Virus record (IMG/VR): IMGVR_UViG_3300045988_183453
Source of the DNA: a virus
DNA length: 64,000 nucleotides
Reading direction: 5' to 3' (one strand)
Part shown: in pieces, positions 6,828 through 62,387 of the stretch
Layout of the letters: every line of letters starts with the position of its first letter
How positions within the stretch are numbered: position 1 is the stretch's first letter
Notes under the pieces: generated by a model
Databases searched by the model: none
Told to the model about the DNA's origin: nothing
What the model saw: only the letters and a program-made list of their open reading frames with translations
Translations under genes and position numbers: made by a program

Positions 6828-6832
6828 AGCCT

Positions 6833-11083: not shown

Positions 11084-11092
11084 CGTAGTCCG

Positions 11093-11170
11093 GTAGTAAC
11101 ATTTTAAGGGATATAAAAGAGTAACATTTTTAGGTGTCATATTTTCGTTCCCTAGAAATGTTACTCTTTC
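11093..11170. promoter_or_regulatory. Operator-like repeats GTAACATTT (two direct, one inverted)
   Basis: ggtagtaacatttt ... aagagtaacattt ...(30 bp)... aaatgttactctt. A 13-bp perfect inverted repeat upstream of gene 11256. Confidence 0.5.
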
Positions 11171-11255
11171 TTTTTGATTTTACGCGGTACGATATGAATT
11201 TCAGCCCTGCGATTCGTATGAGGTACGGAATCGAACGGACAACTTTGGTGGTACT

Positions 11256-12533
11256 ATGACGAACGAACAAAAGCTTCTCGTATATCTCTATAGCGTTGAT
11301 TCTATCCAGCACAAGCAGCTTGCCATTGCTCTCTCTGACATCCCATATCAATGCGTTACCAAAGCTCTGAGAGCGGCCAAAAAGCATGGGTATGTTGAGG
11401 TCTTTATGAGAGATGAATCGCGGTATGTGCGTATCTCTCCGGACGGTCTGAAATACATTCGAAGCACTCAAAAAGACGCTCTGGATGTAGACAAGCGGGC
11501 GGCTATGAAGCGGCGAATCAAAGGCGAACAAGGACGGCTCACCAGGGTGGAAACGACACTCTGCATGTGCCGAGCAGCGGGAATTCAGCCTGCCAAGGAA
11601 GCTGGTATCAAGTTAATCGATGTGCTTGACCCCGAGCAGGATGCGACCCAAACTTTCATGAATGACTTCTTCTATGACAAAGGACTTCTTTTCCTGTCCG
11701 ATGAAATCTCTGCAACTATCAAGACGAGCACCACAATGGGCGAGGAGTACACGCTCGGTCAAAGCCGTCTGGTAGGTATCGTAATCAACCGCACAGGCAT
11801 TTCTTTTCTCTACTGTACGCTCGATAAGCTGATGCGATGGGTTGTGTCTTACGAACAGCGGCGTGTAAGTGCAGTGATGGAACTCTTGAAATCCAGCTCA
11901 CTTGCGGCAACTGACGAGGACTTCGCAACAATCTGCAATATGTCTCCTAAGTGCATCGTTATCGGCAAGACCTGCGCTATAGTTCCAAAAATCATTACTG
12001 GCGATAAGTATGGCAAAGCAATCGACAGCACTGATATTATCAAAACCCATAACGCAACAAGGCTCTTGACGCTCACGAATCTCGAACAAGTCTACAAGTA
12101 CAGCTATTTCGTTCCAGCAAGTTCTATCGGCGTGGAACTTCTTGCTCGAACAGCAGCTTTAACACGAAACGAACTCAATGAAATGATTTCCGTGTGGCTG
12201 GATGAGATGGCTGAAAGCCATACAACCGTTACTACTGGGCGATATGTTGAAGCATACATCAATGAACAGAAATGCAAAACCATAACGCTGCCGGTCATTG
12301 AGTTTGAAGAACTCGAATATCAAAAAAACGGACGAGTGCCTTATCATGTCGTTTGTGAGCGAGGAACGCAAGACGGTATCAGCCGGGCACTAGGAAGCAA
12401 AGTTCTCGATTTCAAGGATTTTGACAACATCCCAATGCCAGCACATAAATACGACGACGACGGAATTCGCCGCGATGGAATTAACCCATTGACGCATAAT
12501 GGATACAATGAAGAGGAGATGGATGACCAATGA
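11256..12533 (+). CDS. Hypothetical protein with N-terminal winged-HTH-like region
   Basis: 425 aa; the N-terminal 70 aa look wHTH-like (…QHKQLAIALSDIPYQCVTKALRAAKKHGYVEV…). No relaxase or recombinase motifs recognised. Confidence 0.55.
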   Translation: MTNEQKLLVYLYSVDSIQHKQLAIALSDIPYQCVTKALRAAKKHGYVEVFMRDESRYVRISPDGLKYIRSTQKDALDVDKRAAMKRRIKGEQGRLTRVETTLCMCRAAGIQPAKEAGIKLIDVLDPEQDATQTFMNDFFYDKGLLFLSDEISATIKTSTTMGEEYTLGQSRLVGIVINRTGISFLYCTLDKLMRWVVSYEQRRVSAVMELLKSSSLAATDEDFATICNMSPKCIVIGKTCAIVPKIITGDKYGKAIDSTDIIKTHNATRLLTLTNLEQVYKYSYFVPASSIGVELLARTAALTRNELNEMISVWLDEMAESHTTVTTGRYVEAYINEQKCKTITLPVIEFEELEYQKNGRVPYHVVCERGTQDGISRALGSKVLDFKDFDNIPMPAHKYDDDGIRRDGINPLTHNGYNEEEMDDQ

Positions 12534-12832
12534 TAGCGATTCGAGTATGTCCAACCTGCAAGCGCAAGTTTGAAGCTCGTGTGGGAGAACCCCAAACTTA
12601 TTGTGAAGAGTGTCTTGAACTCAAAACCATGAGTGAATCGTCCGTGTGCTCTTGGTTCTTTGATGACGATGACTTCGATGACGATTTCGATATCTCGGAA
12701 GCTGGAAAAGAAGAAAAGGCGGAGACACAAGAGGGAAAGCAGAGTAGACAAGTATTTGACTTGATTCCGCCGCACAAGGAAAAGACAAGACGCATGGACA
12801 ACGCTTTCTTCCAGGAAGCATTGAAAGGCTGA
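12530..12832 (+). CDS. Small zinc-ribbon protein with acidic tail
   Basis: CPTCKRKF…YCEEC is a CxxC…CxxC motif. Overlaps the upstream stop (ATGA). Confidence 0.5.
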   Translation: MIAIRVCPTCKRKFEARVGEPQTYCEECLELKTMSESSVCSWFFDDDDFDDDFDISEAGKEEKAETQEGKQSRQVFDLIPPHKEKTRRMDNAFFQEALKG

Positions 12833-30812: not shown

Positions 30813-30883
30813 TAAAGACAGAGCGATTGTGAGATGGGGCGATACCGATGCAGTAGGGATGAGAATCTTAGCAGCTAAAAGAG

Positions 30884-30958
30884 TCAACAACCCCGCCTAA
30901 ACCGGTTCACCGGTTATAGACGGGGCTTGCGGGGTAACCCGTAAGCTCGGTTGATTAG
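30884..30958 (+). ncRNA. Conserved structured RNA-like module, copy A
   Basis: caacaaccccgcctaaaccggttcaccggttatagacggggcttgcggggtaacccgtaagctcggttgattagcc. Nested hairpin (ccccgcc[aaccggt-ttca-accggtt]ggcgggg) plus hairpin gcttgcgggg-taa-cccgtaagc. About 92% identical to 43118-43195. Confidence 0.45.
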
Positions 30959-31138
30959 CCTAAGTCTGCTGCTCCGGCGGCAGGAAACTACGTTGTGTAC
31001 TAATAATATAGGCACCTTATCCATGCTCCACAAGTGGTGAGCTCTGCAGGCGTTTCGTTAAACATCTCCGAGGGGAGGAGAAGTGCGAGCGTCATGTCGA
31101 AAGGCTAAAACAGTGCATAACATTGGCGAAGTGGACCA

Positions 31139-31178
31139 CAGGACGCAAGTCCTGACTTATAGTTTTATTACTATTTTA
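31139..31178 (+). terminator. Possible leader terminator before the flotillin gene
   Basis: caggac-GCAA-gtcctg hairpin followed by a U-rich tract (acttatagttttattactatttta). Weak. Confidence 0.35.
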
Positions 31179-31198: not shown

Positions 31199-32842
31199 AT
31201 GGTATATGTGATTGGAATTGTAGCAGCCCTGATTATTCTCTTTGGATTTCTCTGCTACAAGAAAGCTCCGCCCACGGAGGCTATCGTTGTAACTGGCTTT
31301 GGCCTGTCTAAGCCTAAAGTGGTTTGCGGAAAGGGTACATTTGTTCTGCCCGTTCTTCAACGGGCTGACCGACTGAATATGCGCCTTTTGAAAATCGATG
31401 TCAAGACTCCTGAAACAGGTGTTAAGACGAAGAACGGCGTAAGTCTCTGGATTGACTCTGTTGTCACGATTCAAGTCTACAGCGAAAACTCTACCGTTCT
31501 GGATGAAGAAGTGAAGGCATCCGGTCTGAAAGACGCCAAGGCGTACATCATGTCCCGACAACAGGCAGCCATCTCGAACTTTCTGGGCATGAACGAGCAG
31601 GGCATCAATGAGAAAGTTAATGACGTTCTGCAGGGCAATTTGCGTGAGATTGTCTCTGACATGACCGTTGACCAAATTCTGACGAACCGCAAGCAGATGG
31701 CTGTGAGCGTTATCGAGAATGCTCGCCCCGACCTTGCTAAGATGGGACTTGAGGTCGTGACTTTTAATGTCCAGGACATCAGGGATGCAGTGGATGTTCA
31801 AGGCCACAATCACGGCGTTATCGAAGCTATCGGCATTGAACAGGAAGAGCTTGTGAAAAAACAGGCTGAAATTGCCCGTGCTCAGGCTGCCCGTGATGTA
31901 GCCTGCGCGAAGGCCGATGCTGAGATGGCTGCAAATGCCAAGGAAGTTGAAGCGCAGACTGCGATTGCAAAACGCAACAATGAATTGCAGCTCGCCAAGG
32001 CAAAGCTGAAAGCTGAAGCTGATAAAGCTGCGGCTGACGCAGATGCTGCCGGTCAGATTCAGATGAATCTCCGCGCCAAAGAAATCAAAGAAGCGGAAGC
32101 GGATGCTGAAATCGCCAAGCAGAAGAAAATGGTAGACCTTGCCGCACAGGAAGCCGAGGTCCAGCAACGCAAACTGGATGCGGAAGTCCGCAAACAGGCA
32201 GATGCTGACCTGTACCGCCGCCAGAAAGAGGCAGAAGCCAAGAAATATGAGGCGGAACGTGCAGCTGAGGCACAGAAGTTCTCCAAGCAGCAGGAAGCAG
32301 AAGGCATTGAGCTTGTCGGTAAGGCAGAAGCTGAAGCGATTCGTCAGAAAGGCTTGGCTGAAGCGGAAGCCATGAAACAGAAAGCAGAGGCATATAAGCA
32401 GTATAACGATGCGGCTGTGGCTGAAATGCTCATCAAGGTTCTTCCTGACATTGCCAAGAGCGTGGCTCAGCCTTTGTCCAGCATTGATAAGGTTTCTATC
32501 ATTGGCGGTGATGCCTCCGGCGTATCCGGCGTTTCCGGGAACGTTCCTATCCTGATGGCTCAAACCATGCAGACGGTGAAAGAAGCGACCGGCATTGACA
32601 TGGGCGAAATTGTCCGTGCCAACAGCATCCAGGCAAAGACAGACCGCAACATCAACATTATGACTCAATGTGAACAGCCTGAGAATAACAAAGAGAAAGG
32701 AGGTGCCAAGGCAATGGAACGCGTAGAAGGCGGCTATCTGATTCATGAGAAGAATCTCAACGGTGAGGAAGTCACTCATTTTCGACCGGATGTGACCGAA
32801 GAAGAGAAGGCTATCATGAAAGACAAAAAGGCCAAAGATTAA
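31199..32842 (+). CDS. Flotillin-like SPFH/band-7 protein (FloT/YuaG-like)
   Basis: N-terminal TM, SPFH domain, long Ala/Glu-rich coiled coil (AEAEAIRQKGLAEAEAMKQKAEAYKQY); 547 aa. Confidence 0.85.
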   Translation: MVYVIGIVAALIILFGFLCYKKAPPTEAIVVTGFGLSKPKVVCGKGTFVLPVLQRADRLNMRLLKIDVKTPETGVKTKNGVSLWIDSVVTIQVYSENSTVLDEEVKASGLKDAKAYIMSRQQAAISNFLGMNEQGINEKVNDVLQGNLREIVSDMTVDQILTNRKQMAVSVIENARPDLAKMGLEVVTFNVQDIRDAVDVQGHNHGVIEAIGIEQEELVKKQAEIARAQAARDVACAKADAEMAANAKEVEAQTAIAKRNNELQLAKAKLKAEADKAAADADAAGQIQMNLRAKEIKEAEADAEIAKQKKMVDLAAQEAEVQQRKLDAEVRKQADADLYRRQKEAEAKKYEAERAAEAQKFSKQQEAEGIELVGKAEAEAIRQKGLAEAEAMKQKAEAYKQYNDAAVAEMLIKVLPDIAKSVAQPLSSIDKVSIIGGDASGVSGVSGNVPILMAQTMQTVKEATGIDMGEIVRANSIQAKTDRNINIMTQCEQPENNKEKGGAKAMERVEGGYLIHEKNLNGEEVTHFRPDVTEEEKAIMKDKKAKD

Positions 32843-32970
32843 AGACAACATGAAAAGAGGGTGACTCGAAAGAGCCATCCTTTTTTCTGTTGTGACGCAA
32901 ACGAAAAGTTCATGGTAGCCATCCAATTTGGGTAACTGTCTTTTTTGCATGTTAAGGCTTTGTTGCTGAA

Positions 32971-32989
32971 TTGTGCGAATTGAAGATAA
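32971..32989 (+). promoter_or_regulatory. Motif promoter P2 (TGTGCGAATTGAAGATAAT)
   Basis: TTGCTG-N16-GATAAT. Confidence 0.55.
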
Positions 32990-33044
32990 TTAAAAACAAA
33001 AGATGCTTTGTATCAAATCGATTGAAACCGAAGAGGTGAAGTTA

Positions 33045-33848
33045 ATGCTCGGCGTGAGTTTGATTATCATAGCAGCGGCTATAGTCTACATGGTCGAAAC
33101 CTATATCAGCACCTATTACACTATCGAATACATGCACGGAACATCGCTGTTCCTTATCCTCCTTGCGAAATATGGCACGCCAGTCCTGTTCCTGCTGCTC
33201 TGCGCCTACATTGCATATCGCAATTTCCTCAAAAAGCAGAAAGCTGCGGCTTCTGCTGCATCTGAACGGCCTACAAGCAAAGAAGAGCTGTATACCAACA
33301 AAATTCAAACGGCAGTAAAGACAAAAAGCGTCTTCTCAGAGCAGGCTGACCAAATGCTGTATCAGGTACGGCGCTTCGGGCAAAAAATGGCCGTTGCCTA
33401 CAGCATGACCCAGGATAGCAAGACATCCGGGGAACAAGCCAAGTGCCTAACGTTATTGGAATCCGCAGAACGTATCTTCTATGACCGACTGGATGACGCG
33501 ATTCGCTCGGCTTCAATGTTTGATGAAACGGAATACAAGGCTTTCTGTCAAGGCTCTATCTCGTTTGGAAACAAAGAAGAAGCGCAGAAAAAGAAAGAAA
33601 TCTACAATGGTATCGTAAGTACCGTGGATAAGGTAGTTCATGACAATGAGCGCTTAATCCTCCGATTAGATTCTTTAGCATACGCTCTGAACCAACGTTC
33701 TGCCCAGAATCCGTGGGATACAGAGGTTGTGCTCGCAATGTCAAAGCTCGATGCTGTCATTAACAAGACGACGCAGGATATTGAACAGGATGAAGATATC
33801 AGTCGTGAGGCTATGAAACGATATAACAACTTGAAAGGAGAAATTTAA
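33045..33848 (+). CDS. Membrane protein (3 TM) with soluble C-terminal domain
   Basis: Start MLGVSLIIIAAAIVYM with RBS GAGGTG (the track start 33003 lies in the promoter). Adjacent to the flotillin gene. Confidence 0.5.
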   Translation: MLGVSLIIIAAAIVYMVETYISTYYTIEYMHGTSLFLILLAKYGTPVLFLLLCAYIAYRNFLKKQKAAASAASERPTSKEELYTNKIQTAVKTKSVFSEQADQMLYQVRRFGQKMAVAYSMTQDSKTSGEQAKCLTLLESAERIFYDRLDDAIRSASMFDETEYKAFCQGSISFGNKEEAQKKKEIYNGIVSTVDKVVHDNERLILRLDSLAYALNQRSAQNPWDTEVVLAMSKLDAVINKTTQDIEQDEDISREAMKRYNNLKGEI

Positions 33849-33849
33849 C

Positions 33850-35544
33850 GTGACAAAAAAGAACATTTTCCCTGTAGTTGCAACCATCGCCGTGGTGGGT
33901 GTTGTTCTCGGAGTATTTTCGATGACGGTGATGAGGGACTCGAATGTCAGCATCAGCACGATGACTTCCGAGCAGGCATATGCCAACTTGAGCAGCAAGA
34001 TGAAACGTATCGGGGTGCAGGAAGTATCCGTCAATCCGCAGCAGCTTGATGTATCGGAGTTTCTGGACGCAAAGGATGAACTGCCCGACATTGAATCCTC
34101 CTACCCATTCGTGGTGGAGGGGAACGGTGATGTCAACATTGAAGTCTTCTCTTCCGGCGAGAAAGCAGCAGAATCCGGCTCCGATTCTTTCCTGACAAGC
34201 ATGGCAAAAAAGTTCAATGCCCAGCACAACAAGACTTCCGGAGACAAGACTATGAGTGTCTCCCTGCGCTCCGTTCCGTCCGGTACGGCGGCTGAGTACA
34301 TCTCGACGGGAAAGTATCAGCCCGAGTGCTATACCCCCTCAAATACGCTCTTTGGCGAGCTGGTGAAGAACGAGGGCGTAGAATTGACCGTTGAGGCTGA
34401 CCGTCTGGTCGGCAATGTGGCGGGTATTCTCGTATCAAAGAAGACAGGGGATATGCTTCGCTCTGAATACGGTGAAGCGTCTGTTTCTTCCGTTCTGAAC
34501 GCAACCATCGATGGCAAACTCATGATGGGGTATTCCAACCCATATACCAGCGCAACTGGTCTTAACTTCCTGCTTGCTGCATTGGCAAGCAGCGGCAGCG
34601 ATACGATTGTCGATACGGCTGCTGTTGAGAATTTCCAGAAATTTCAAGCGAACGTCCCTCTCGTATCCTTCACGACCCAGCAGATGGTCCAGTCGGCTGA
34701 CAAGGGTATCGTGGACGGTGTCGTGATGGAGTACCAGTCTTATCAGAATGACCCGACCTTGCAGCGCAACTACGAGTTCATCCCGTTCGGTGTGCGGCAT
34801 GATAACCCCCTGTATTCTATTGGAAGCATCTCGGCCGAAAAGAAGGAAGTTATTGCTGCGTTCGTTTCCCTCTGCGCCCAGAATCAGGCAGAAGCGACGA
34901 AGGACGGGTTCAATGGTCTTGACGACTATGCTTATACAGGCAAGGCATACGACGGCAACACCATCGCACAGGCTCAGAGTGTCTGGAAAGAAGAGAAGGA
35001 TTCCGGTATTCCTATTGTGGCAGAGTTCGTTGTCGATACTTCCGGCTCGATGCGCGGCGAACCCCTGAATGCCCTGAAAACCGCGATGATAAACACCATC
35101 CAGTATATCAATGACGACAACTATATCGGCATCATTGGCTTTGATTCAGATGTCAGGGAATACCTGCCCATTGACCAGTTCTCTCTGACCCAGAAAACTC
35201 TGTATAAGGGTGCCGTGAACTCCCTCGATGCGAACGGCAGCACCGCAATGTACAACGGTCTTTGCGTTGCTATGGACCGCATCTACCAGAAATCTCAGGA
35301 ACTGGGTGGGAATTGCACGCTCATCATCTTTGTGCTCACGGACGGTGACAACAATACCGGATATGGCTTCTCCGATACGAAGAACATCATTGCCGGTATG
35401 GATATCCCCATTTACACCATCAGCTACAACTACGCAGCGGATAGTCTTTCGGAGCTCGCTTCCATCAACGAAGCGGCAGCTATCGTTGGTAACAGCGAGG
35501 ATATCACCTACAAGCTCCGCAACCTGTTTAACGCAGAGATGTAA
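33850..35544 (+). CDS. Membrane-anchored protein with C-terminal von Willebrand factor A (vWA) domain
   Basis: N-terminal TM; MIDAS-like VVDTSGSMRGEPL and the LTDGDNNTG motif. Confidence 0.7.
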   Translation: MTKKNIFPVVATIAVVGVVLGVFSMTVMRDSNVSISTMTSEQAYANLSSKMKRIGVQEVSVNPQQLDVSEFLDAKDELPDIESSYPFVVEGNGDVNIEVFSSGEKAAESGSDSFLTSMAKKFNAQHNKTSGDKTMSVSLRSVPSGTAAEYISTGKYQPECYTPSNTLFGELVKNEGVELTVEADRLVGNVAGILVSKKTGDMLRSEYGEASVSSVLNATIDGKLMMGYSNPYTSATGLNFLLAALASSGSDTIVDTAAVENFQKFQANVPLVSFTTQQMVQSADKGIVDGVVMEYQSYQNDPTLQRNYEFIPFGVRHDNPLYSIGSISAEKKEVIAAFVSLCAQNQAEATKDGFNGLDDYAYTGKAYDGNTIAQAQSVWKEEKDSGIPIVAEFVVDTSGSMRGEPLNALKTAMINTIQYINDDNYIGIIGFDSDVREYLPIDQFSLTQKTLYKGAVNSLDANGSTAMYNGLCVAMDRIYQKSQELGGNCTLIIFVLTDGDNNTGYGFSDTKNIIAGMDIPIYTISYNYAADSLSELASINEAAAIVGNSEDITYKLRNLFNAEM

Positions 35545-35815: not shown

Positions 35816-35860
35816 TTTTACCAGCAGTTTGATATTCTGCGGCATGATTTCCAGCAGTTT
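35816..35860 (+). repeat. Direct repeats ACCAGCAGTTTGATAYTCTG, two copies with a third at 42008-42030
   Basis: ccagcagtttgatattctgcgg … ccagcagtttgatactctgtgg; compare ccagcactttgatattttgtgg at 42010. Confidence 0.5.
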
Positions 35861-35884
35861 GATACTCTGTGGGCAGTTGCACAG

Positions 35885-35904
35885 CCGTGCAAATTGCATA
35901 CAAT
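35885..35904 (+). promoter_or_regulatory. Motif promoter P13 (CCGTGCAAATTGCATACAAT)
   Basis: TTGCAC-N16-TACAAT, followed by a ~340-nt leader before gene 36248. Confidence 0.5.
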
Positions 35905-36247
35905 GGGAATTGAAGAACAAAAAGAGCGATGCAAGGCTGTATTTACAAAAAATCCTGTGAGCGTTTTTTAGTATTCATTAAACGACACGAAATTCAACAA
36001 AACGTGAAGAGAATACAAGAAAAGGTGAATGAAATCCGGCTGAGGCGGATAAAACTTGCGCTGAGTGGTTTGAAGTCCGGACAATGGGACAGCTAAAGTG
36101 GTAAAATGAAACTAGGAATACCTAAAATCAGATTTAACCGAAAAAACAAAAACCATGAATGAATAATTGGTTGCTAAAAAGTAACCGCTCGCTTTTATAC
36201 CCAAACCAACAAATGACCCAAATCTGTTTAGGAAGGATAGGTACAAA

Positions 36248-38413
36248 ATGGCAAGAAGAAAAGCAAACGACTTGGAAAATCAGATGTCGCTGATGGACAT
36301 GATGGCATCGGAAAGCCCCGAATATACCGAAGAAGGTCCGGAAGAACTCTTGGACCCCGGCGAGGACATGGGGGACAGTGAAGGGCAGACGGATAAGCCC
36401 TTCAAACTCGTGGCGAACAAGACCACGAAGACAAAGGTGAGCATCTCCACGCAGGCGCTGAATGTTGTGAAGGCGGTATATGCTGATACGGTCGAAACGA
36501 ATTGGGAAGAGTTGTTTGACGGGTTCGACAGACTCTATGCTATCACTTTTTCGTCCGGTATCGAGTTCGTGAATAAGGTCATCAACAAGTTCTCGTATGC
36601 GGAAGTCGTGTTCGGATGCGAGAAAATCATCGCCAACGACATTGCTGCCATCATGTCGGTGCAAATCGACAGCGTGCAGCGGCTCGCTAAGTCTAAGTCG
36701 GCAGGGAACCTTGCGAACCGCCTCGATGACGGGTCTTTGCAGTTGTATGTATCGCGGGACACGAAATCGCACGAGAAAATCTTCATTTTGGAGAGCGCTG
36801 ACCATAAGCGTGTCCGAGTCATCACCGGCAGTGCGAATATGTCGGCATCGGCGTTTTGCGGCATCCAGCGAGAGAATATCGTTTGCTTCGATGACGAGGC
36901 GGCATTTTCGCATTATAAGGTCCTGTTCGAGACCTTCAAGGAGACCTGCTCCGACAATGTCTCCTATAAGGCAGTCGTGAACACCATGAACCAGGAAGAT
37001 TATCTGAAAGAGAACATCAAAGAAGTGCCCGTCTTTCAGTCTATTGAAAAGCAGAAGCTTGTCTTTCTGGAACAGGCACAGCCCGAGGATGAGGTCGAAT
37101 ACGAGATAGTTGCCGATGTCAAGAAAATGCAGGAACTCGTCAAGCCAATCATGCCTAAGATGCCAGTACAGGCGAATCGTATTGTAGTGGCAGCGGAACC
37201 GATGCGCGTTTTCGGGAAACGATATACCGAGGTTCGGCATGTGGCAGCTGAGGCAGTTAAGCAGCTCCCGAAATTACATATCGACTATGATGCCGGGACA
37301 ATGACCTTCAACGACGAGAATATCGACCTCAATCCGAATCTCAACGAGGTGGCAAAGAACATCAAGAGCATCCAGAAGTTTTTCTCAGGCATGGACTACT
37401 TTTACGGCGATGTCGAGCAGGCCAAGAAGGACTACTTCAAATACATGACCTGGTATCTGGCTACTCCGTTCATGGCGTTTCTGCGGTATTTCGCATCGAG
37501 GAACAACTACGATACGAAGCTGTTCCCGATGTACGGCGTTATATACGGCGACTCAAACGGCGGCAAGACGACATTTATAAAATTTCTTGTCAAACTCATG
37601 TGCGGTGAGACCGTTAAGATGAACACAACGGAGGATTTCACAGCCACAAGAATCGACGGCCTCAAACGAGTTTGTGAGGGACTGCCGCTGAACATCGACG
37701 ACCTCGCCAAGACCCAGTTCCAGAACCATTCAGAACGGGTAATCAAGAACGATGAATGGGGCATCTCGGACAGGCTCGTGAACTATCCTGCTGTATCTAT
37801 CACATCGAATAAAATCACCTCGCTGACAAAAGACCTCTCGAAACGCGCTATCATCTGTCGAATCGGTGCTAAAATCGACAACGAGCGCGGTGCCAAGAAC
37901 TCGAAGCGTGTGAATGAGAGTATGTCGGAGCTGACAACCGCGTTCTATGGCGAATATGTCCGCCGAATGCTTGTTTGCATCGATGAGATGACGACGGAAA
38001 TGCGTGAAAATGCGAATGGCAAGGAATACTTCCCGGATATCTTCCATGCCTCGTCCAGCGTGATTGCGGATATCTTCGAAGATTGCAGAATCGATTTGCC
38101 GGACTATGTGCGTATCCTGTATTACAACGACTACATGGGTGATGAGAGCATTGGTCGTGCTGCGATTGAAAAAATCGAACTGGCGTGGCAGGCTGACCCG
38201 AGCAAGTTCCGGGTGGATAAGAAGCAGAACCGGCTCATTTACTCCTATCCACCGGATGGACCGTGGTACGAACTGAAATACATTGCAGATGAGCTGCCGA
38301 ACTCCCTCGAAGCAGAGATTTCTGGCGGCAACCAGCTTATCATGAACTACGAGCAGGCACAGGAATTGTTCGGCATCAAGTTTCGGCGCTGGCTGGGCAT
38401 CTTTAACCTCTAA
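36248..38413 (+). CDS. Fusion protein: N-terminal PLD-like (HKD-type) domain plus C-terminal SF3 (D5/VirE-like) helicase P-loop NTPase; candidate replication initiator
   Basis: SHEKIFILESADHKRVRVITGSANMS is an HxK…GSxN-like motif. Walker A GDSNGGKTTF, Walker B LNIDDL, and motif C AVSITSN. Confidence 0.55.
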   Translation: MARRKANDLENQMSLMDMMASESPEYTEEGPEELLDPGEDMGDSEGQTDKPFKLVANKTTKTKVSISTQALNVVKAVYADTVETNWEELFDGFDRLYAITFSSGIEFVNKVINKFSYAEVVFGCEKIIANDIAAIMSVQIDSVQRLAKSKSAGNLANRLDDGSLQLYVSRDTKSHEKIFILESADHKRVRVITGSANMSASAFCGIQRENIVCFDDEAAFSHYKVLFETFKETCSDNVSYKAVVNTMNQEDYLKENIKEVPVFQSIEKQKLVFLEQAQPEDEVEYEIVADVKKMQELVKPIMPKMPVQANRIVVAAEPMRVFGKRYTEVRHVAAEAVKQLPKLHIDYDAGTMTFNDENIDLNPNLNEVAKNIKSIQKFFSGMDYFYGDVEQAKKDYFKYMTWYLATPFMAFLRYFASRNNYDTKLFPMYGVIYGDSNGGKTTFIKFLVKLMCGETVKMNTTEDFTATRIDGLKRVCEGLPLNIDDLAKTQFQNHSERVIKNDEWGISDRLVNYPAVSITSNKITSLTKDLSKRAIICRIGAKIDNERGAKNSKRVNESMSELTTAFYGEYVRRMLVCIDEMTTEMRENANGKEYFPDIFHASSSVIADIFEDCRIDLPDYVRILYYNDYMGDESIGRAAIEKIELAWQADPSKFRVDKKQNRLIYSYPPDGPWYELKYIADELPNSLEAEISGGNQLIMNYEQAQELFGIKFRRWLGIFNL

Positions 38414-38474
38414 TATGCATGGCAGGTTCTTTTCGGAGCCTGCCTTCTTATTTCGCAAAAATAGTTGCCCATTT

Positions 38475-38493
38475 GTGCGAATTGCAGACAATC
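38475..38493 (+). promoter_or_regulatory. Motif promoter P3 (TGTGCGAATTGCAGACAAT) with a structured ~125-nt leader
   Basis: TTGCCC-N16-GACAAT. The leader has hairpins cccacgatttcaatcgtggg and ccgcatacaaggcagcgagttatgcgg. Confidence 0.55.
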
Positions 38494-38620
38494 AGAATTG
38501 ACACCTCCCACGATTTCAATCGTGGGATTCCCGGGTGGCGGTGGCAAGGCTTATCACCATGCCGCATACAAGGCAGCGAGTTATGCGGTTCCCCACCATC
38601 CGCTACGGGTGTAGCGCACA

Positions 38621-39735: not shown

Positions 39736-40332
39736 ATGAGCTATGAACCCATTATCACACCGGGCAGGAATTTCTTTCTTGTCTCGACGGAGTACAAAGA
39801 GAGCTGCTCTGCCTGGTGCCGCAAGCAAATTAGAGCGACACTGAGGACCTGTCAGGGACGAGTCATCATCATTGATGCAACGGGCGAGTACGCGGACTTG
39901 GCGCTTGAACATGACAGATTGATTCGAGAGAAAATTCCGTCCATTATTTATCGGTATAAGCTGGTGGACGGGAAACCGTATATTGCTCATGTCATTGAAG
40001 TTGATACGGAAGCAAATGAAGCACCGCACCTGATTGTATACGATATCAGCCGGACCATAATCATCAGCTGGAAGGTCGGCGTGGAAGCCGTCAATAAAAT
40101 CCTGCAATCCTATGCCGTGATGCAGGACAGTGAAATTGCGTGGCTGTATGTTCCGTTGGACCTATATACCAATGTCAAGCCCGAAAGCGAATCCTGGAAC
40201 ATTCTGGAACGAACCATCAAGGGCAATGAAGGAAAGCTCATGACAGTGCTAACGACTCGAAAATTCACCATCGGCATGGTTCAGCGCTGTTTGCATATGA
40301 CAAAAAATAAACTTTTGGAGGATAGCAAATGA
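39736..40332 (+). CDS. Hypothetical protein
   Basis: 198 aa with RBS AGAGGA. Confidence 0.5.
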   Translation: MSYEPIITPGRNFFLVSTEYKESCSAWCRKQIRATLRTCQGRVIIIDATGEYADLALEHDRLIREKIPSIIYRYKLVDGKPYIAHVIEVDTEANEAPHLIVYDISRTIIISWKVGVEAVNKILQSYAVMQDSEIAWLYVPLDLYTNVKPESESWNILERTIKGNEGKLMTVLTTRKFTIGMVQRCLHMTKNKLLEDSK

Positions 40333-41216
40333 CCAATGAACAGCTGAGAATCGCATTGACGGCGAATGCCGTTACCAAACAGACCCGTAACCATTTTGGG
40401 TTCAGTGACCCGTGTGGGAAGACTCTGGAAGAGTACAACAAATCTTCAACGCTTTGCTGTGTGACGGCAGCGCAGAAAATGAACACGCCGGGTTTCGAGC
40501 GTGTCCTTGCTGCACAGATTTTCCCCTGCTTCACCATCGGCTGCTGGAACCAGACGAAGACGGTCTATGATTTTGACTACGAGTTCCAGAAAATTCTTAT
40601 GGATACGGATGACATGGCGATTCATCAGGATATCCTGCAGCGGCTTCCGATTCGTGATTTCTTTATCCCGGTGTATGACAGCTACGACTACAACGGTATG
40701 TTCGTGCATGTGGAATTCGAAGAGAAAGAGAAGACCACTGCTTTCGGCATCGTTCTTGTCGGCCCGGCCAAAGGCAGCCATGATGATTTCACGTTCCTGA
40801 CTCTGCCTGCCTGGGCCAAAGAAAACCAGAGTTTGACGGAAGCAACTCGGAGCACGAAAGAATACCTGGAAAAGGCAGCCGGGCAGCGGCAGGTAAATGG
40901 TATCAGCGTACCGGCTGTGATGGAAGCAGTTCCTTCGGTCTTTGACGGCGGCACACCTTATGTTCGCCTGGCAATCCTGTGTGCCTACTATCTTGCCAGT
41001 AAGAACCCTGATGTCCGCTTGGAAACTTCCAAAAAGCGCGACCGCCCAGTATTCGTGTTTCAGGGAAAGGCACAGCGAATCAACGTCAAGACATATACCG
41101 TTGGTGAGAATGCGGCCAAAGAATACAAAAAGAATGGGGAAGGCAAAACTCCCCGCTGGCGGCATTACTGGTGCGGCAATGGCCGGGAACGCCGGGAATG
41201 CAAGTTTATTTACTGA
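40329..41216 (+). CDS. Hypothetical protein
   Basis: 295 aa; ATGA overlap with the upstream gene. Confidence 0.5.
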   Translation: MTNEQLRIALTANAVTKQTRNHFGFSDPCGKTLEEYNKSSTLCCVTAAQKMNTPGFERVLAAQIFPCFTIGCWNQTKTVYDFDYEFQKILMDTDDMAIHQDILQRLPIRDFFIPVYDSYDYNGMFVHVEFEEKEKTTAFGIVLVGPAKGSHDDFTFLTLPAWAKENQSLTEATRSTKEYLEKAAGQRQVNGISVPAVMEAVPSVFDGGTPYVRLAILCAYYLASKNPDVRLETSKKRDRPVFVFQGKAQRINVKTYTVGENAAKEYKKNGEGKTPRWRHYWCGNGRERRECKFIY

Positions 41217-41942: not shown

Positions 41943-42089
41943 AAAAGGCGGTAAACAAATGCAAGAGGCGGGAGTCCCGGGTTTGTTGGTTCCAGAACGT
42001 CTTCTCACCTTAATTTTACCAGCACTTTGATATTTTGTGGTTATTGACAAACGGCGCAAAAGGTGCTTGAGTTAAAAGCCATTGCAAAA

Positions 42090-42139: not shown

Positions 42140-42748
42140 ATGAGTGAACAGAAAGAAAATGCTCAGCTCGAAGCTTATCGGAAGCTCGTTGAAGATTTCA
42201 AGCGCTTTGTCAGCTCTGAGATTCGGACGGAGGAAAACAGTTACCGAATTGTGGACATGACTTCTGAAGATGCCGAAATCAATGACCCTAGTGTTCCGGT
42301 AACTCAGCTGGAAGACGATAAGGCAGAGAAGCTTGCCGGTATCTGCATGGACCTGTCCAATGCCACGCTGTGGCTCTACTACAACCGTGACAAATTTGCA
42401 AACGTCGAGTTTATGCCCCTGACTGATGAAACTCTGAAAGAATACCAGAAGCAGGCTCAGAATGCTCTGAATGAACCGAAGAGCCCTCTGTATCTGAAAT
42501 CCTGGTATCAGCTCATTGAAATGTTGAGTCAGGAATGTATCCCGCAGCGCTACGAGGACGACGGTCAGCGATATACAGACGTCTATGTGAACACCTATAT
42601 GCTCATGTACCTGACCATGACCCGACTCAAGAATGGCGGCACCTTTACGCGCCTTGCAAACGGGCAGGGAAGCGATGCTGTGAAAATCACGACCATCGCA
42701 ATGTACTACTTCTCCAGCCTTTTGACGGTTCTCTGCACTGAATATTAA
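42140..42748 (+). CDS. Hypothetical protein
   Basis: Start MSEQKENAQ after the RBS AGGGAG; the track start 42092 lies in the promoter. Confidence 0.5.
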   Translation: MSEQKENAQLEAYRKLVEDFKRFVSSEIRTEENSYRIVDMTSEDAEINDPSVPVTQLEDDKAEKLAGICMDLSNATLWLYYNRDKFANVEFMPLTDETLKEYQKQAQNALNEPKSPLYLKSWYQLIEMLSQECIPQRYEDDGQRYTDVYVNTYMLMYLTMTRLKNGGTFTRLANGQGSDAVKITTIAMYYFSSLLTVLCTEY

Positions 42749-44017: not shown

Positions 44018-44052
44018 AAGTGCCGCCTGAGTTAGAAATTAGGAGAATTTGC

Positions 44053-44505
44053 ATGATTCGAGTTAAGAAAGAGAACCACCGTAGTTGGTTCATGAGCAAC
44101 TATTATCCTTGCGAATTTGTGATGAATGGGATTCGCTACAAGAACGCTGAAGCAGCGTTTCAGAGTCACAAGGTCCCACTGGAAGAGCGCAGACAGTTTG
44201 CGGACATGCCACCGGCTTCTGCCAAGCGCTTTGGCCGCAATGTAGCTATCCCCGCAAACTGGGGTGAGGCTCGGGACGACGTGATGCGCCGCGTGGTGAT
44301 GGCCAAGTTCGAGCAGAATGAGGACCTCAAACAGCGCCTCCTCGAAACGGGTACGCAGCCTATTGAGGAAGACACGACCAGCTGGCATGACAATTACTGG
44401 GGCAACTGCCACTGCCCGAAATGCCAGAACATCCCAGGTCAAAACCGGCTTGGGATTATTCTGATGGAAACGAGGGATAAACTGAAAAAGCAAGCGGGCA
44501 AATAA
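44053..44505 (+). CDS. NADAR-domain protein (YbiA-like ADP-ribose / N-glycosidase family)
   Basis: Colinear with E. coli YbiA: NYYPCEFVMNGIRYKNAEAAFQSHKV; VMRRVVMAKFEQNEDLKQRLLETG; SWHDNYWG…GQNRLGIILMETR. Confidence 0.85.
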   Translation: MIRVKKENHRSWFMSNYYPCEFVMNGIRYKNAEAAFQSHKVPLEERRQFADMPPASAKRFGRNVAIPANWGEARDDVMRRVVMAKFEQNEDLKQRLLETGTQPIEEDTTSWHDNYWGNCHCPKCQNIPGQNRLGIILMETRDKLKKQAGK

Positions 44506-59144: not shown

Positions 59145-59301
59145 TAATCCTAGATATTTGTATCACTCATACAAGGCCGGAAAACTACTGGATTGATTTT
59201 CAAAAGCAATAGCAATCGAGACCACTGCCCCGAAAAGGGTAGTGGTCTTATTTTTTGCACAATACTTACCATAAATTACCAGAAAGAAAAACATTGTGCA
59301 T

Positions 59302-59321
59302 CTGTGCGAATTGCATATAAT
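59302..59321 (+). promoter_or_regulatory. Motif promoter P11 (CTGTGCGAATTGCATATAAT)
   Basis: TTGTGC-N16-TATAAT. Confidence 0.6.
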
Positions 59322-59388
59322 ACAAAATATAGAACGAAAGGCATCAAAAAATATCGTTGGTCGGGCAAAATTCGACCGAAAGGCTAGG

Positions 59389-59421
59389 GCAGGCTCAGTT
59401 TTGAACCTGCTCTTTCTTTTT
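59389..59421 (+). terminator. Leader terminator before the HTH-repeat gene trio
   Basis: gcaggctcagttttgaacctgc followed by TCTTTCTTTTT. A second upstream hairpin is tcggtcgggcaaaattcgaccga. Confidence 0.5.
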
Positions 59422-59433
59422 ATCGGAGGCTTT

Positions 59434-59961
59434 ATGTCAAACAAAGAGGAACGCATGAACCGCAATAAAAGCATCATCGAAGATTACAAAAATGGAAAGC
59501 CGATTTTAGAAATCGCGAGGGAATATAATCTTTCAGAAACGATGTGCTACAAGATTCTAAAAGGTACGCAGGAGCCGCCCCGTTATTTTGAAAAAAAGAG
59601 GAAGAGACTTACCACTCGAAATGAGCAGATTGTTAAACAGTATAAAGGCGGTATGACGGCCAGAGAATTGGGCAAGATGTACGGCATTTCCATGCAGCGT
59701 ATTTATGCAATCTTGCATTCGAGCGGAGAGTACGAAAGCCAAAAATACAATCATATTGAAACGACTCTCAAAAAAGAGAAAAAGATGCGGAACCAAACTT
59801 TTCTTGATGCTTACAAGAAAAATCCTCGAAAATCGATTATCGAGTTGAGCAGGGAGGTAAATATCAGCCCTTCACTAGGTTACCTTATCCTTCATCAAAA
59901 TGGGATTTACCAGTATAACGTAAAAGCCAGAGCTAAGGAGAATAGCGAAAATGCCGATTAA
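59434..59961 (+). CDS. Tandem HTH-repeat protein (3 repeats)
   Basis: Three ~50-aa repeats of the pattern Y(K/E)xGx(S/T)xxEIAxEYxISxxxxYxIL, resolvase/sigma-region-4-like HTHs. Confidence 0.6.
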   Translation: MSNKEERMNRNKSIIEDYKNGKPILEIAREYNLSETMCYKILKGTQEPPRYFEKKRKRLTTRNEQIVKQYKGGMTARELGKMYGISMQRIYAILHSSGEYESQKYNHIETTLKKEKKMRNQTFLDAYKKNPRKSIIELSREVNISPSLGYLILHQNGIYQYNVKARAKENSENAD

Positions 59962-60469
59962 CAAGATTACCCACATGTGTCTAACTCATGACAAAGTCAG
60001 AGCACGAAATGAAAAGATGCTGGAGGATGCCAAGGACGGTATGTCCCAGGAACAGCTGGCCGAAAAGTATCAAATTTGTGTTTCTACTGTCCGATATAGT
60101 CTGAAGGACTTTTACAAAGAACAGGCCCGGCAGAGGAAAGCAAAGAAGAAAGCCTGGCAAACCCAGATGATTCATGAATATGAGATGGGCGCAAAATCTC
60201 CGGAGCTCCAGGAAAAATACGGCATCAGTGGAACGCTCTTTTATCGGATTCTTCATGCGCATGGAAAGAATGGCCGACAAATCCACAGCCAAAACCGTAT
60301 CGAGACTGGCAAGAAAAGAAACGCCGAGATGGTCAGGAAATACAAAAACGGCGTTTCTGTCAAAGAGCTTGCGGAAGAATACGGGCTCAAAAAGGGAAGC
60401 GTATATCGCGCCATGAAGCGGTATAGTCCAGGCCCAGGGAAAAGTAAAAGTTGTCAAAGCGAGGAATAA
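59951..60469 (+). CDS. Tandem HTH-repeat protein (3 repeats), paralog
   Basis: DAKDGMSQEQLAEKYQICVSTVRYSL; EYEMGAKSPELQEKYGISGTLFYRIL; KYKNGVSVKELAEEYGLKKGSVYRAM. Overlaps the upstream gene. Confidence 0.6.
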   Translation: MPINKITHMCLTHDKVRARNEKMLEDAKDGMSQEQLAEKYQICVSTVRYSLKDFYKEQARQRKAKKKAWQTQMIHEYEMGAKSPELQEKYGISGTLFYRILHAHGKNGRQIHSQNRIETGKKRNAEMVRKYKNGVSVKELAEEYGLKKGSVYRAMKRYSPGPGKSKSCQSEE

Positions 60470-60473
60470 TTGC

Positions 60474-61427
60474 ATGGCTGCATCAAAGAAAGATGTTGCG
60501 AAGCAGCAGGTCAAAGAAGACCGCGAAAAGGTTCGGGAAATGTATCTTTCTGGCAAAACTGTCAAGGAAATCGCCAAGGAAACGTATTTTTCAAGCTCTT
60601 ATTGCTATGCCATGGTGAGAGACCTAGCAAAAGAAAAGAATCTTGCAAAGAAAGCAAAAAGAGCACCTCTCGACGAAGCTATGATTCAAGATGCGAAAGC
60701 CGGGATGACGGTTGCTGAAATCGCAAAGAAGCATGGCGTGACCTATCAGCAGTGCTACTATACTGTTTCTGAATACGCTCAAGCTACGATTAAGAAGAAC
60801 AAGAAAAAGCAGTCTGCTGCCACGAAAGTTCGCAATGCGGCTATGTTGGAAGATGCGAAAGCCGGAATGACTGATAAGGAAATCGCCAAAAAATACTTTT
60901 TGTCTCGAAGCAGTGTCCGTACCGTCCTTGCAGGGCATTTACATACAAATTCCAAAAAGTTGGATGAAAGGCGCAAGGCGATTCTTGCGGATTATGAGGC
61001 AGGAACGTCCTCAAAAGACATCTGTGAAAAATACGGTATTTCAAAATCCACTCTTTACAAGGACATACGCCAAATTGGAAAAACCTGTCAGGAATACTAT
61101 CACAAGGCGCTGAAAGACAAGACCAATCAAAGGAATTCCGATATTCGAAGCAAAATCGAAAGAGGGGTCTCGGTCAGCACTATTGCCAAGGAATACGGAA
61201 TCTCTAAAACGGCGATTTATGAAACGTTTCATCAGGAAAATGTCAGAGCTGGAATTTTACAGAAACGCGGCCGTCCGCGAAAAAACACGGAACGTAATGC
61301 ACTGATTGCTAAACGCCACAGGGAAGGCGAGAAGGTGCAGGCGCTTGCCACTGAATATAATCTCTCTGTTTCGACGGTAAACACTATTTGCAGTAGAAAC
61401 AAAAATCAGAATATAACCTCATATTAA
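60474..61427 (+). CDS. Tandem HTH-repeat protein (6 repeats), paralog
   Basis: Six repeats (…DAKAGMTVAEIAKKHGVTYQQCYY…, …DYEAGTSSKDICEKYGISKSTLYKDI…, etc.). Confidence 0.65.
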   Translation: MAASKKDVAKQQVKEDREKVREMYLSGKTVKEIAKETYFSSSYCYAMVRDLAKEKNLAKKAKRAPLDEAMIQDAKAGMTVAEIAKKHGVTYQQCYYTVSEYAQATIKKNKKKQSAATKVRNAAMLEDAKAGMTDKEIAKKYFLSRSSVRTVLAGHLHTNSKKLDERRKAILADYEAGTSSKDICEKYGISKSTLYKDIRQIGKTCQEYYHKALKDKTNQRNSDIRSKIERGVSVSTIAKEYGISKTAIYETFHQENVRAGILQKRGRPRKNTERNALIAKRHREGEKVQALATEYNLSVSTVNTICSRNKNQNITSY

Positions 61428-61472: not shown

Positions 61473-62387
61473 ATGACAGACGACGTACGTAATTTAATTC
61501 GATTTGTGGTGGATGGCGATATTCGAAACGCGCAGACTCAGTGTCGAATCATGCTTGAAAAGAATGTACCCGAAAAGGACGCCAGGTTCAAAGAAAACGA
61601 ACTCAGAAAGTTGAATCTTCTGAAACCGGAACTGATTCAGCTGCCCGCCAACCTGGAAAACCTCTTGATTGCGGAGGATGCCACGAATTTCCCTGAGAGC
61701 CGGTTCCTGCTCCGCGAGGAGGAAGAAACAGTCATCAACAAGCTCTTGGCCACCAGAAAAGCAGCTTTAGCCATCAAGGAGCTTGGCATCCACTATACTT
61801 GCTCTTTGCTTTTGACGGGCCTTCCTGGTGTTGGTAAGACTGAATTGGCCCGCTACATTGCACACAAGGCGAATTTACCGTTTGTTTTCCTGAAATTTTC
61901 TGGCCTTGTCAATTCTGCTCTTGGCCGGACACAGCAGAACATCGGCAGAGTGTTCGATTACGCAAAGCGCACGCCTTGTGTTCTTTGTGTTGATGAAATT
62001 GATGCCATCGGAATGTGCCGTGGCAGCCGCGATGATGTCGCTGAAATGAGCCGCGTCACCATCGCATTGATGCAGGAACTTGACCGGCTCCCGAATGACG
62101 TCATTCTCATTGGCACTACAAACCGCGTCGATAACCTTGACGAAGCCCTCATTCGCCGATTCACTTTCAAACACCGCGTCAAGCCTTTAGGCGACGATGA
62201 TATGAAAGAACTGTGCAAGAAGTTCCTTGCTTCGGCAGACTATCCCTTCACGGAATCCGAACTCGACGAACTCTGCCATTCGCTGCGTGAACAGCGGACT
62301 GCCAGCGCCGCTGTCAATGCCTGTACAGAACGTATCGTTACACATATCGTATCGCAGCTGCCTGAAAATTCGGCAGATGCCGTGTAA
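61473..62387 (+). CDS. AAA+ family ATPase
   Basis: Walker A LLLTGLPGVGKTELA, Walker B VLCVDEIDAI, sensor-1 IGTTNR, and arginine finger region LIRRFTF. Confidence 0.8.
   Translation: MTDDVRNLIRFVVDGDIRNAQTQCRIMLEKNVPEKDARFKENELRKLNLLKPELIQLPANLENLLIAEDATNFPESRFLLREEEETVINKLLATRKAALAIKELGIHYTCSLLLTGLPGVGKTELARYIAHKANLPFVFLKFSGLVNSALGRTQQNIGRVFDYAKRTPCVLCVDEIDAIGMCRGSRDDVAEMSRVTIALMQELDRLPNDVILIGTTNRVDNLDEALIRRFTFKHRVKPLGDDDMKELCKKFLASADYPFTESELDELCHSLREQRTASAAVNACTERIVTHIVSQLPENSADAV

Follow-up and report, generated by a model that had tools for sequence, protein, structure and literature searches.

In SauUSI and NgoAVII/CglI, a BfiI/NgoFVII-type PLD nuclease is coupled to an ATP-hydrolysing DNA motor that is SF2 helicase-like, with SRA-like or B3-like DNA-recognition domains. 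The HUH-SF3 Rep proteins of parvoviruses, CRESS-DNA viruses and rolling-circle replicons likewise combine a nuclease with a helicase, in this case of the SF3 type. The only experimentally characterised branch found in the literature for the family analysed here is that of AgaP, the PLD partner of long-A Argonautes (pAgo) in the haloarchaeal APAP system (Cheng et al., mLife 2024, PMC11442185). Expressed alone, AgaP is toxic, and both this toxicity and the restriction of plasmids require the PLD catalytic residues (PMC11442185). The words ATP and ATPase never occur in that paper (PMC11442185), so that a motor domain apparently was not considered.

The locus described here lies in a 64,000-nt stretch of DNA from an IMG/VR virus record (the window) and encodes, on the plus strand (36248–38413), a 721-aa protein that joins an AgaP-like PLD nuclease to an SF3/Cch-type AAA+ helicase-like ATPase. 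Given the defence-type contexts of the homologues and the characterised relative AgaP, the favoured reading, held with reasonable but far from full confidence, is that this protein is a stand-alone AgaP-like nuclease-helicase, probably a DNA-targeting enzyme of defence or interference; such an enzyme is more likely than a replication module of the plasmid.

The ORF and all the PLD and SF3-type motifs quoted in an earlier note on this DNA are present. The ORF starts with an ATG, with the ribosome-binding site AGGAAGGA located 10–17 nt upstream (~36231–36238). The ~66 N-terminal residues (36248–36445) comprise an acidic, fast-evolving tail that is predicted to be disordered (pLDDT below 50 for residues 1–66, compared with the mean of 86.2 for the AlphaFold model of the entire protein), is missing in most of the aligned homologues and shows dN of 0.35–0.38 against the L077, L079 and L070 copies. 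The folded domains, in contrast, are all under strong purifying selection, and dN/dS against diverged copies of the gene is ~0.05.

The tail is followed by the PLD (HKD) nuclease domain (36455–36961), whose only catalytic motif consists of H175-x-K177 (36770–36778; SHEK, residues 174–177) and, after a spacing of 16 residues from K177 to G194, G194-S-A-N197-M-S199 (36827–36844; GSANMS, residues 194–199). The PLD assignment, already proposed in the earlier note, is upheld by Pfam matches above the cut-offs (RE_NgoFVII, 30.1 bits against 23.8; PLDc_2, 27.2 against 27), which are found in 39 and 35 of the 41 family members, respectively, and by the PLD fold, with structural matches to 7clg and 4rct. 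There is one catalytic HxK per chain; H222-Y-K falls in a column without conservation in the alignment of the 41 sequences. No family could be assigned to the middle region (36962–37507), where the model shows two long helices as well as a small alpha/beta part ahead of the ATPase core (37508–37927). In this core, Walker A (GDSNGGKTT, residues 434–442, 37547–37573), Walker B (LNIDDL, residues 481–486, 37688–37705, with NIDD at 482–485), motif C (SITSN, residues 517–521, 37796–37810, with TSN at 519–521) and the arginine finger R533 (37844–37846) are all conserved and come in the SF3-like order, with a B′-like VIKNDEWG (37739–37762) between Walker B and motif C that contains the nearly invariant K500. 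Across the 41 sequences, with identity down to 24%, H175, K177, G434, K440 and R533 are invariant, and S195, N197, S199, G439, K500 and N521 are at least 90% conserved; G194 is invariant only among the 8 closest sequences. The protein ends with a helical region and a small alpha/beta domain (37928–38392, from the model secondary structure), which is alignable along AgaP to about residue 700. From the model, the small domain possibly adopts a winged-helix-like fold, and the C-terminal region is a candidate DNA-recognition module.

The designation of the ATPase as an SF3 helicase core, made in the earlier note, stands with respect to the motif order and the fold, which resembles those of solved SF3 or MCM-like helicases (the Foldseek matches of the 721-aa protein include the B19V NS1 helicase), but not with respect to the SF3 Pfam profiles, the RNA_helicase match being at 13 bits, below the cut-off of 21.5. 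Among the relatives, weak SF3 Pfam matches are scattered (PPV_E1_C with 1.4e-5, RNA_helicase, VapE and DUF5906). Searches with the 721-aa protein yielded no match in PHROGs or NCBIfam, noise only in the PDB sequence search, and only generic P-loop and Zucchini fragments in the PDB profile search. The closest solved relatives of the ATPase are replication-initiator helicases of mobile elements, an observation that counts against the defence reading.

The window protein resembles SauUSI and NgoAVII/CglI in joining a PLD nuclease of the BfiI/NgoFVII type to a motor, but this motor is of the AAA+ ring-helicase type, and no SRA-like or B3-like reader domain is recognised in it. It also lacks detectable membership in the sequence families of SCCmec Cch, SaPI Rep (DUF927-type) and the SF3 helicases (D5, E1, NS1, NrS-1), from which it further differs in that its N-terminal part is a nuclease rather than an origin-binding or primase domain and that no iteron origin is adjacent to the gene.

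The earlier note held the fusion to be atypical; however, the combination of PLD with the Pfam family PF27394 (‘Aq_aa27') is a large catalogued architecture, with 926 clusters at 50% identity in bacteria and archaea and the full-length arrangement conserved. The window protein is assigned to PF27394 through homologues that are 97–99% identical to it, in which precomputed PF13091, PF09565 and PF27394 matches are present, with PF27394 downstream of the PLD domain. Literature searches for PF27394 or Aq_aa27 returned nothing or spurious matches, and those for PLD-SF3 fusions, and for NgoFVII with ATPase and defence, returned nothing relevant. A metagenome scan with the profile of an 8-sequence alignment recovered close relatives only, and a genome scan with the single 721-aa protein identified one MAG.

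Haloarchaeal AgaP aligns with the family of the window protein in hhalign over ~565 columns, across both domains, with probabilities of 99.6% and 99.5% (E-values of 2e-24 and 3e-22). On this sequence evidence, AgaP belongs to the PLD + Aq_aa27 family as a remote relative that matches it along its whole length. The AgaP ORF of N. pellirubrum contains VHSK, GSPN, GESNGGKGT, VVDD and ISN..RNR, and all three haloarchaeal plasmid matches adjoin Piwi genes. [quoted passage not shown] They differ in that the identity between them is only ~19%, that HxK and GSxN are separated by ~50 residues in AgaP compared with 16 in the window protein, and that only AgaP shares its transcript with a Piwi gene, no Argonaute being encoded near the window gene: Piwi or Argonaute domains are absent from the ORFs between 27.4 and 53.6 kb of the window and from the close relatives. 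That AgaP is toxic without pAgo, while the window protein stands alone, counts against the defence reading as well.

The context argument comes from ~10 sampled neighbourhoods and is not a family-wide statistic. A WYL regulator adjoins the gene in three independent settings, namely, in L013, in L018/L019, where the gene and the regulator are located directly upstream of brxA-brxB-brxC-pglX (BREX), and in L100/L101, where the homologue is found beside the WYL regulator, PIN7, two methyltransferases and a McrB-like ATPase. One homologue is on an island with an SF2/MTES_1575 helicase, another one is in a helicase-methyltransferase-helicase cluster, and some are in toxin-antitoxin islands. No small partner protein is conserved across these contexts, only the WYL regulators being shared. 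Self/target control in the relatives relies on pAgo in the case of AgaP and on WYL repressors for several bacterial relatives. No recognisable partner, whether WYL, Piwi or another, is encoded within ~10 kb of the window gene, nor does any of the scanned window ORFs match WYL; the genes immediately downstream, AcrVA2-like and NADAR, look like anti-defence rather than defence genes. The lack of a partner and these neighbours are further points against the defence reading, and so is the fact that PADLOC 2023 includes no model for the family. In PADLOC, the protein has only a weak match to the ZacB PLD (E = 0.003), and its neighbours in the window have only generic UvrD/GajB similarity.

On the favoured reading, the PLD domain is a metal-independent DNA nuclease, coupled to an AAA+ motor of the SF3/Cch-like kind. 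By analogy with Cch, SaPI Rep and SF3 helicases, the ATPase domains would form a ring, in which adjacent PLD domains may pair to complete the active sites, as in the Nuc and BfiI dimers. ATP-driven translocation or unwinding would then supply DNA to the PLD sites for cutting or degradation, and the resulting interference with incoming DNA, such as phages and rival plasmids, would benefit both the plasmid and the host. Expression of the gene might, as a guess, be controlled through a repeat motif and the long leader upstream.

The element that carries the gene encodes conjugation proteins (T4CP at 1489–3657 and a VirB4-like protein at 6824–9493). A phage origin of the window, considered because 50 contigs in IMG/VR contain this gene, was rejected as unsupported in view of these conjugation genes; the collection of phage genomes contains no match to the PLD-helicase protein, and ten large unassigned ORFs of the window match no phage structural families. 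The gene itself travels as a cassette common to different contexts (~35965–38497), which is closed by an intrinsic terminator-like hairpin with a T-run (38421–38454, + strand) that is kept in all contexts.

An alternative that seems unlikely, but less so than those below, is that the protein serves the plasmid in DNA processing, either by degrading host or competitor DNA once the plasmid has entered by conjugation, in an establishment or anti-defence role, or in a Tdp1-like repair role, removing covalent protein-DNA adducts with the help of the motor. The conjugative nature of the element and the position of the gene just upstream of the AcrVA2-like and NADAR genes are compatible with such a plasmid-serving function, as are weak Tyr-DNA_phospho matches in 5 of the 41 family members and the annotation of one archaeal member as a tyrosyl-DNA phosphodiesterase.

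A role in replication or mobilisation of the plasmid or the gene cassette, as a non-HUH analogue of HUH-SF3 Rep, is improbable. Under this scenario, the PLD domain would nick a specific site via a covalent phosphohistidine, leaving a 3′-OH, and the ring helicase would unwind the DNA from the nick. The nuclease-helicase combination is shared with the HUH-SF3 Rep proteins, but a PLD histidine takes the place of the HUH tyrosine, with a different fold and chemistry, and no origin hairpin or nick site was identified. The elements in which the gene occurs are large plasmids that encode a Rep themselves: every plasmid with a visible backbone encodes a canonical initiator (L004, Rep_3 with ParAB; pKOB3, RepA; Arcobacter p82, Rep with DnaB; pATS1, Rep), and chromosomal islands contain homologues without other mobility genes. 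Neither an iteron array nor a cluster of DnaA boxes nor a skew switch occurs near the gene; the skew analysis suggested in the earlier note does not map an origin here. DnaA boxes number 16 compared with 13.8 expected, and the intergenic region has none. In one of 10 near-identical plasmid contigs, the gene is split into 444 and 271 aa, which also argues against an initiator, although this could be an assembly error. The defence-type contexts and AgaP, a restriction effector (PMC11442185), point to defence, and the replication module proposed in the earlier note is not supported. The broader version of this idea, in which a site-specific or structure-specific PLD nickase with a ring helicase represents an unrecognised non-HUH class of rolling-circle-type initiators in plasmids and islands, and the presence in defence islands reflects island mobility, is very improbable.

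The upstream region bears on the remaining alternative. The direct repeats reported in the earlier note at 35816 and 35842 are real but shifted and longer: two 25-nt copies, TTACCAGCAGTTTGATATTCTGCGG (35818–35842, + strand), which contains the extended −10-like TGATATTCT, and TTTCCAGCAGTTTGATACTCTGTGG (35848–35872, + strand), lie 30 nt apart, start to start. A third copy, which the note had placed at 42008–42030, does exist, at 42016–42040 (+ strand), 100 nt upstream of a gene for a 202-aa protein (42140–42748) and just before a TTGACA hexamer. Copy 2 ends 4 nt upstream of TTGCAC (35877–35882), which together with TACAAT (35899–35904), after a 16-nt spacer, makes up a weak promoter-like site, and ~340 nt separate this site from the ATG. 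To this extent, the leader described in the earlier note stands, but not as a region devoid of ORFs: it contains a 55-aa ORF (35929–36096), which is not conserved as coding because a 1-nt indel shifts the frame in close relatives. The leader proper (35965–36247, + strand) is A-rich (33–39% GC), has no conserved ORF and includes another promoter-like site (36078–36107); it accompanies the gene into a different context in L004 and is missing in the L077 lineage. The suggested structured RNA is not supported: the fold of the leader is not unusual (z = −1.38; 11 of 100 shuffled sequences are as stable), and no Rfam family matches. The entire intergenic region folded as DNA reaches z = −3.9, owing to terminator hairpins and a ribozyme remnant.

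The repeats occur far above chance (3 matches compared with 0.00 expected in 100 shuffles) and are retained in 123 of the 129 related loci, which have between 0 and 3 copies. They are absent in L004 even though the protein there is 90% identical, and in the L077 lineage, without the long leader, they are 74–104 nt from the ATG, a promoter-like position. Every copy contains the extended −10-like core TGnTAT(T/C)(C/T/A)T. Given the variable copy number, the location outside the shared cassette and the third copy in front of another gene, the 25-nt repeats resemble a promoter or operator motif of at least two transcription units rather than iterons. That the 721-aa protein binds them as the iterons of an origin, with the leader as a structured regulatory RNA, has next to no probability: such a function would fit two direct repeats and an AT-rich leader upstream of a helicase-type gene, but there are only two tandem copies and no array, relatives can do without the repeats, the third copy is at a promoter distance from an unrelated gene 6 kb away, and neither the weak fold nor the patchy presence of the leader agrees with it.

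For the family, the comparison with AgaP adds to the experimental work by pointing out that AgaP itself carries a conserved ring-helicase-type ATPase. This suggests that the motor opens the DNA, or threads it, when Argonaute-AgaP attacks double-stranded plasmids, and predicts that Walker A mutants of AgaP would lose plasmid restriction. Few large conjugative elements of the human gut are assembled as often as the carrier of the window gene, and two protein clusters of this gene alone comprise 5005 and 2893 sequences. If the defence or interference reading holds, the single-gene nuclease-helicase would be a widespread, still uncatalogued candidate system of immunity or interference.

The 721-aa ORF at 36248–38413 (+), whose ATG start is preceded by the ribosome-binding site AGGAAGGA, contains all the motifs quoted in the earlier note: the PLD motif parts SHEK (residues 174–177) and GSANMS (194–199), followed by Walker A GDSNGGKTT (434–442), Walker B LNIDDL (481–486) and motif C SITSN (517–521). 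The identification of a PLD nuclease fused to an SF3-type helicase proved correct: residues 144–235 match PLD families above the curated Pfam cut-offs (RE_NgoFVII, 30.1 bits vs 23.8; PLDc_2, 27.2 bits vs 27), the motifs are conserved, and some family members show weak SF3 Pfam matches (e.g. PPV_E1_C, 1.4e-5), the nearest solved motors being those of the Cch/SaPI-Rep type. In the alignment of this protein with 40 homologues (24–44% identity), the K177, G434, K440 and R533 columns are invariant, as are G123 and R413 outside the named motifs; S195, N197, S199, Q207, E209, G439, K500 and N521 are kept in at least 90% of the sequences, as is H175, which is invariant only among the 8 closest ones. 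The pattern is that of an HKD nuclease site and, C-terminal to it, Walker A, a B'-like lysine, the sensor-1 asparagine and the arginine finger. The AlphaFold model from the homologue alignment has a mean pLDDT of 86.2, with disorder confined to residues 1–66. There is a single HKD motif per chain, and PLD activity should need the pairing of two chains, as is known for Nuc and BfiI.

Every folded domain is under strong purifying selection (dN/dS ~0.05 vs copies at 82–85% nucleotide identity), unlike the disordered N-terminal tail, which is fast-evolving. Compared with the homologous loci L004 (protein 90% identical) and L072, the first 66 codons have dS of 0.08–0.14 and the remainder of the gene 0.7–2.2; in L004, the leader preceding the gene moves together with the 5' segment of the gene (window 35965–36445 compared). 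This marks the gene as a recombination mosaic and suggests a recent exchange of its 5' end.

The fusion, considered atypical in the earlier note, instead defines a large family with a catalogued Pfam architecture: an exhaustive HMMER search yields 926 clusters at 50% identity (E <= 0.001), 284 of which reach E <= 1e-30, with members mostly of 640–690 aa aligning end to end and with homologues annotated, in precomputed Pfam, as PF13091, PF09565 and PF27394 (named 'Aq_aa27'). Human-gut metagenomes contain the window's lineage in great abundance; two 90%-identity clusters comprise 5005 and 2893 sequences. The contigs of the recovered loci, 80 from metagenomes and 50 from IMG/VR, reach 346 kb, and one MAG with the gene is labelled Clostridiales. 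The domain family itself is catalogued, with a single distant member, linked to Argonaute, characterised. To our knowledge, the stand-alone bacterial form is without experimental description. PADLOC 2023 holds no model for this form.

Three haloarchaeal plasmids gave tblastn matches, all three adjoining Piwi-domain genes; among them is Natrinema pellirubrum pNATPE02, whose 717-aa ORF is AgaP, the PLD partner of a long-A Argonaute (Cheng et al. 2024, PMC11442185). The nuclease-helicase protein is homologous to AgaP over its full length: in profile–profile comparison, the family alignment matches two AgaP orthologues with probabilities of 99.6% and 99.5% (E 2e-24 and 3e-22) across ~565 columns that include the PLD part as well as the ATPase part, and N. 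pellirubrum AgaP has GESNGGKGT, VVDD, ISN and RNR at the expected positions. AgaP is toxic if expressed without its Argonaute, this toxicity requires residues H105, K107, G157, S158 and N160, and plasmid restriction by the pAgo–AgaP pair uses the PLD centre of AgaP; the words ATP and ATPase are absent from that paper, and the motor domain is not mentioned (PMC11442185). Whereas the target choice of AgaP comes from the Argonaute, no Piwi or Argonaute domain was found in the window ORFs between 27.4 and 53.6 kb.

The sampled neighbourhoods of bacterial homologues are of the defence type. The gene follows an integrase and a divergent WYL regulator in L013; lies between a WYL gene with a 127-aa gene and an 88-aa gene with brxA-brxB-brxC-pglX in L018/L019; and is flanked by WYL and PIN7 on one side and by TnpV, two methyltransferases and a McrB-like ATPase on the other in L100/L101. 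Further homologues are found in a small chromosomal island that also encodes an SF2 helicase with an MTES_1575 domain (L009–L012), upstream of a RelB-family gene in metagenome contigs (L014–L017), in toxin-antitoxin islands of Acetobacteraceae plasmids and in a helicase-methyltransferase-helicase cluster of Athalassotoga pATS1. The WYL proteins of the three WYL contexts are mutually homologous, no small partner besides WYL is common to the sampled contexts, and WYL repressors probably restrain several of the bacterial relatives. We favour, with some reserve, the reading that the window protein is a defence or interference nuclease-helicase. Its motor domains would assemble as a ring, like those of Cch, SaPI Rep and SF3 helicases, with active sites formed by the pairing of adjacent PLD domains; ATP hydrolysis would move or open the DNA, and the PLD sites would cleave it without metal ions.

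The carrier element is treated as a large conjugative plasmid because it encodes a type IV coupling protein (1489–3657, +) and a VirB4-like ATPase (6824–9493, +), no phage structural genes are recognisable among the ten large unassigned window ORFs, a search of the phage genome collection gave no match to the PLD-helicase protein, and L004 encodes Rep_3, ParA and ParB ~10 kb upstream of its copy of the gene. The same gene is present, at 91–99% identity, on 50 contigs classed as 'viral' in IMG/VR (L118–L167; the longest 346 kb). The viral classification may be wrong; alternatively, the element could be a phage-plasmid. Downstream of the gene are a 295-aa ORF (40329–41216, +), with same-length counterparts in relatives annotated as PF26125 AcrVA2-like, and a gene for a NADAR-domain protein (44020–44505, +; E 2.7e-25), both anti-defence-like. 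These neighbours would suit a protein that serves the plasmid itself, in establishment, anti-defence or repair, but such a role does not fit the contexts outside the window and seems unlikely.

Still less probable is a nickase-helicase replication initiator. Members of the family do occur on plasmids, and the motor resembles mobile-element replication initiators; however, the homologue-bearing plasmids have separate Rep genes (a canonical initiator is annotated elsewhere on pKOB3, Arcobacter p82, pATS1 and L004), there is no origin signature near the gene, the direct repeats upstream of it are dispensable in relatives, and the AgaP data argue against this role. Domain searches of the ORFs found no replication initiator within the window.

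The direct repeats reported in the earlier note are real, with coordinates shifted by 2–8 nt and a unit of 25 nt. The copies lie at 35818–35842, 35848–35872 (30 nt from the first, start to start) and 42016–42040; the degenerate 25-mer pattern has exactly these three sites in the window, vs 0.00 expected in shuffles. Cassette limits were set by aligning the upstream and downstream regions across contexts, and the unit common to the window and L004 extends from ~35965 to ~38497 and consists of leader, gene, terminator hairpin (38421–38444) and a further ~45 nt. The repeats are outside this unit and absent from L004. Of 129 related loci whose upstream sequence reaches 750 nt or more, 106 have two copies, 16 have one, one has three and six have none; the absence from related replicons, which the earlier note named as refuting its proposal, is thus seen in part. 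In a diverged lineage (L070, L077–L082, L092, L097), two copies are located 74–104 nt from the ATG, without the long leader. A 202-aa gene (42140–42748, +) begins 100 nt after the third window copy. In L004, a homologue of its product (38% identity, E 2e-45; L004 12309–12938) is encoded by the gene that directly follows the nuclease-helicase gene, whereas the window has ~3.6 kb of other genes in between. The 202-aa protein could be a lineage-specific partner. The TGnTAT(T/C)(C/T/A)T core of each copy resembles a putative extended -10 element, and the repeats behave like a promoter or operator motif common to two transcription units.

That they are iterons marking an origin, next to a structured RNA leader, is highly improbable, given that the copy number varies from 0 to 3, the third copy is at another gene, the cumulative GC skew climbs steadily through the region, DnaA-box-like sites occur at chance level with none in the intergenic region, and the leader has a fold z of -1.38 (11 of 100 shuffles fold as well) and no Rfam match. 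Tandem Repeats Finder detects the two-copy repeat only, and the 55-aa ORF of the leader is frame-shifted in relatives.

Farther upstream, a conserved trio (31199–35544, +) encodes a 547-aa SPFH/flotillin, a 281-aa protein that has no family matches and whose counterparts in relatives are called at 267 aa, and a 564-aa protein with a vWA domain; a ribozyme follows the trio in relatives. Ten contigs share an identical vWA protein; in one of them, L113, the nuclease-helicase gene (10399–12564) is called as two ORFs of 444 and 271 aa, which reflects either disruption of this copy or a fault in the assembly. The window segment 35571–35655 (+) matches the F. prausnitzii HDV-like ribozyme (RF02682) at 29 bits, below the Rfam gathering score of 44. 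All 11 scanned relatives that keep an extra small-ORF stretch (~1.25 kb in L064) have an intact ribozyme (54–60 bits) directly after the vWA stop codon, for example L064 2057–2127, L035 2923–2992, L077 6560–6629, L079 5703–5771 and L026 3620–3689. The window match is the stump of a genuine ribozyme that lost its 3' half by deletion between two GCAGCGG repeats. The SPFH/flotillin gene is closely preceded by a HEARO RNA (RF02033, IscB omega RNA; 30883–31141, +; 96.4 bits vs gathering score 83), with no adjoining IscB-like ORF identified; some relatives have a TnpB (OrfB_IS605) gene near this position.

Three consecutive proteins consisting of repeated helix-turn-helix/Mor-like modules (221, 172 and 317 aa; 59296–61427, +), which are followed by an AAA ATPase (61473–62387), are candidates for regulators that act on the 25-nt repeat and similar motifs. 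Because neither an Argonaute nor a WYL gene was recognised among the window ORFs scanned, control of the putative defence nuclease-helicase may be transcriptional, perhaps via the repeat motif and the long leader.
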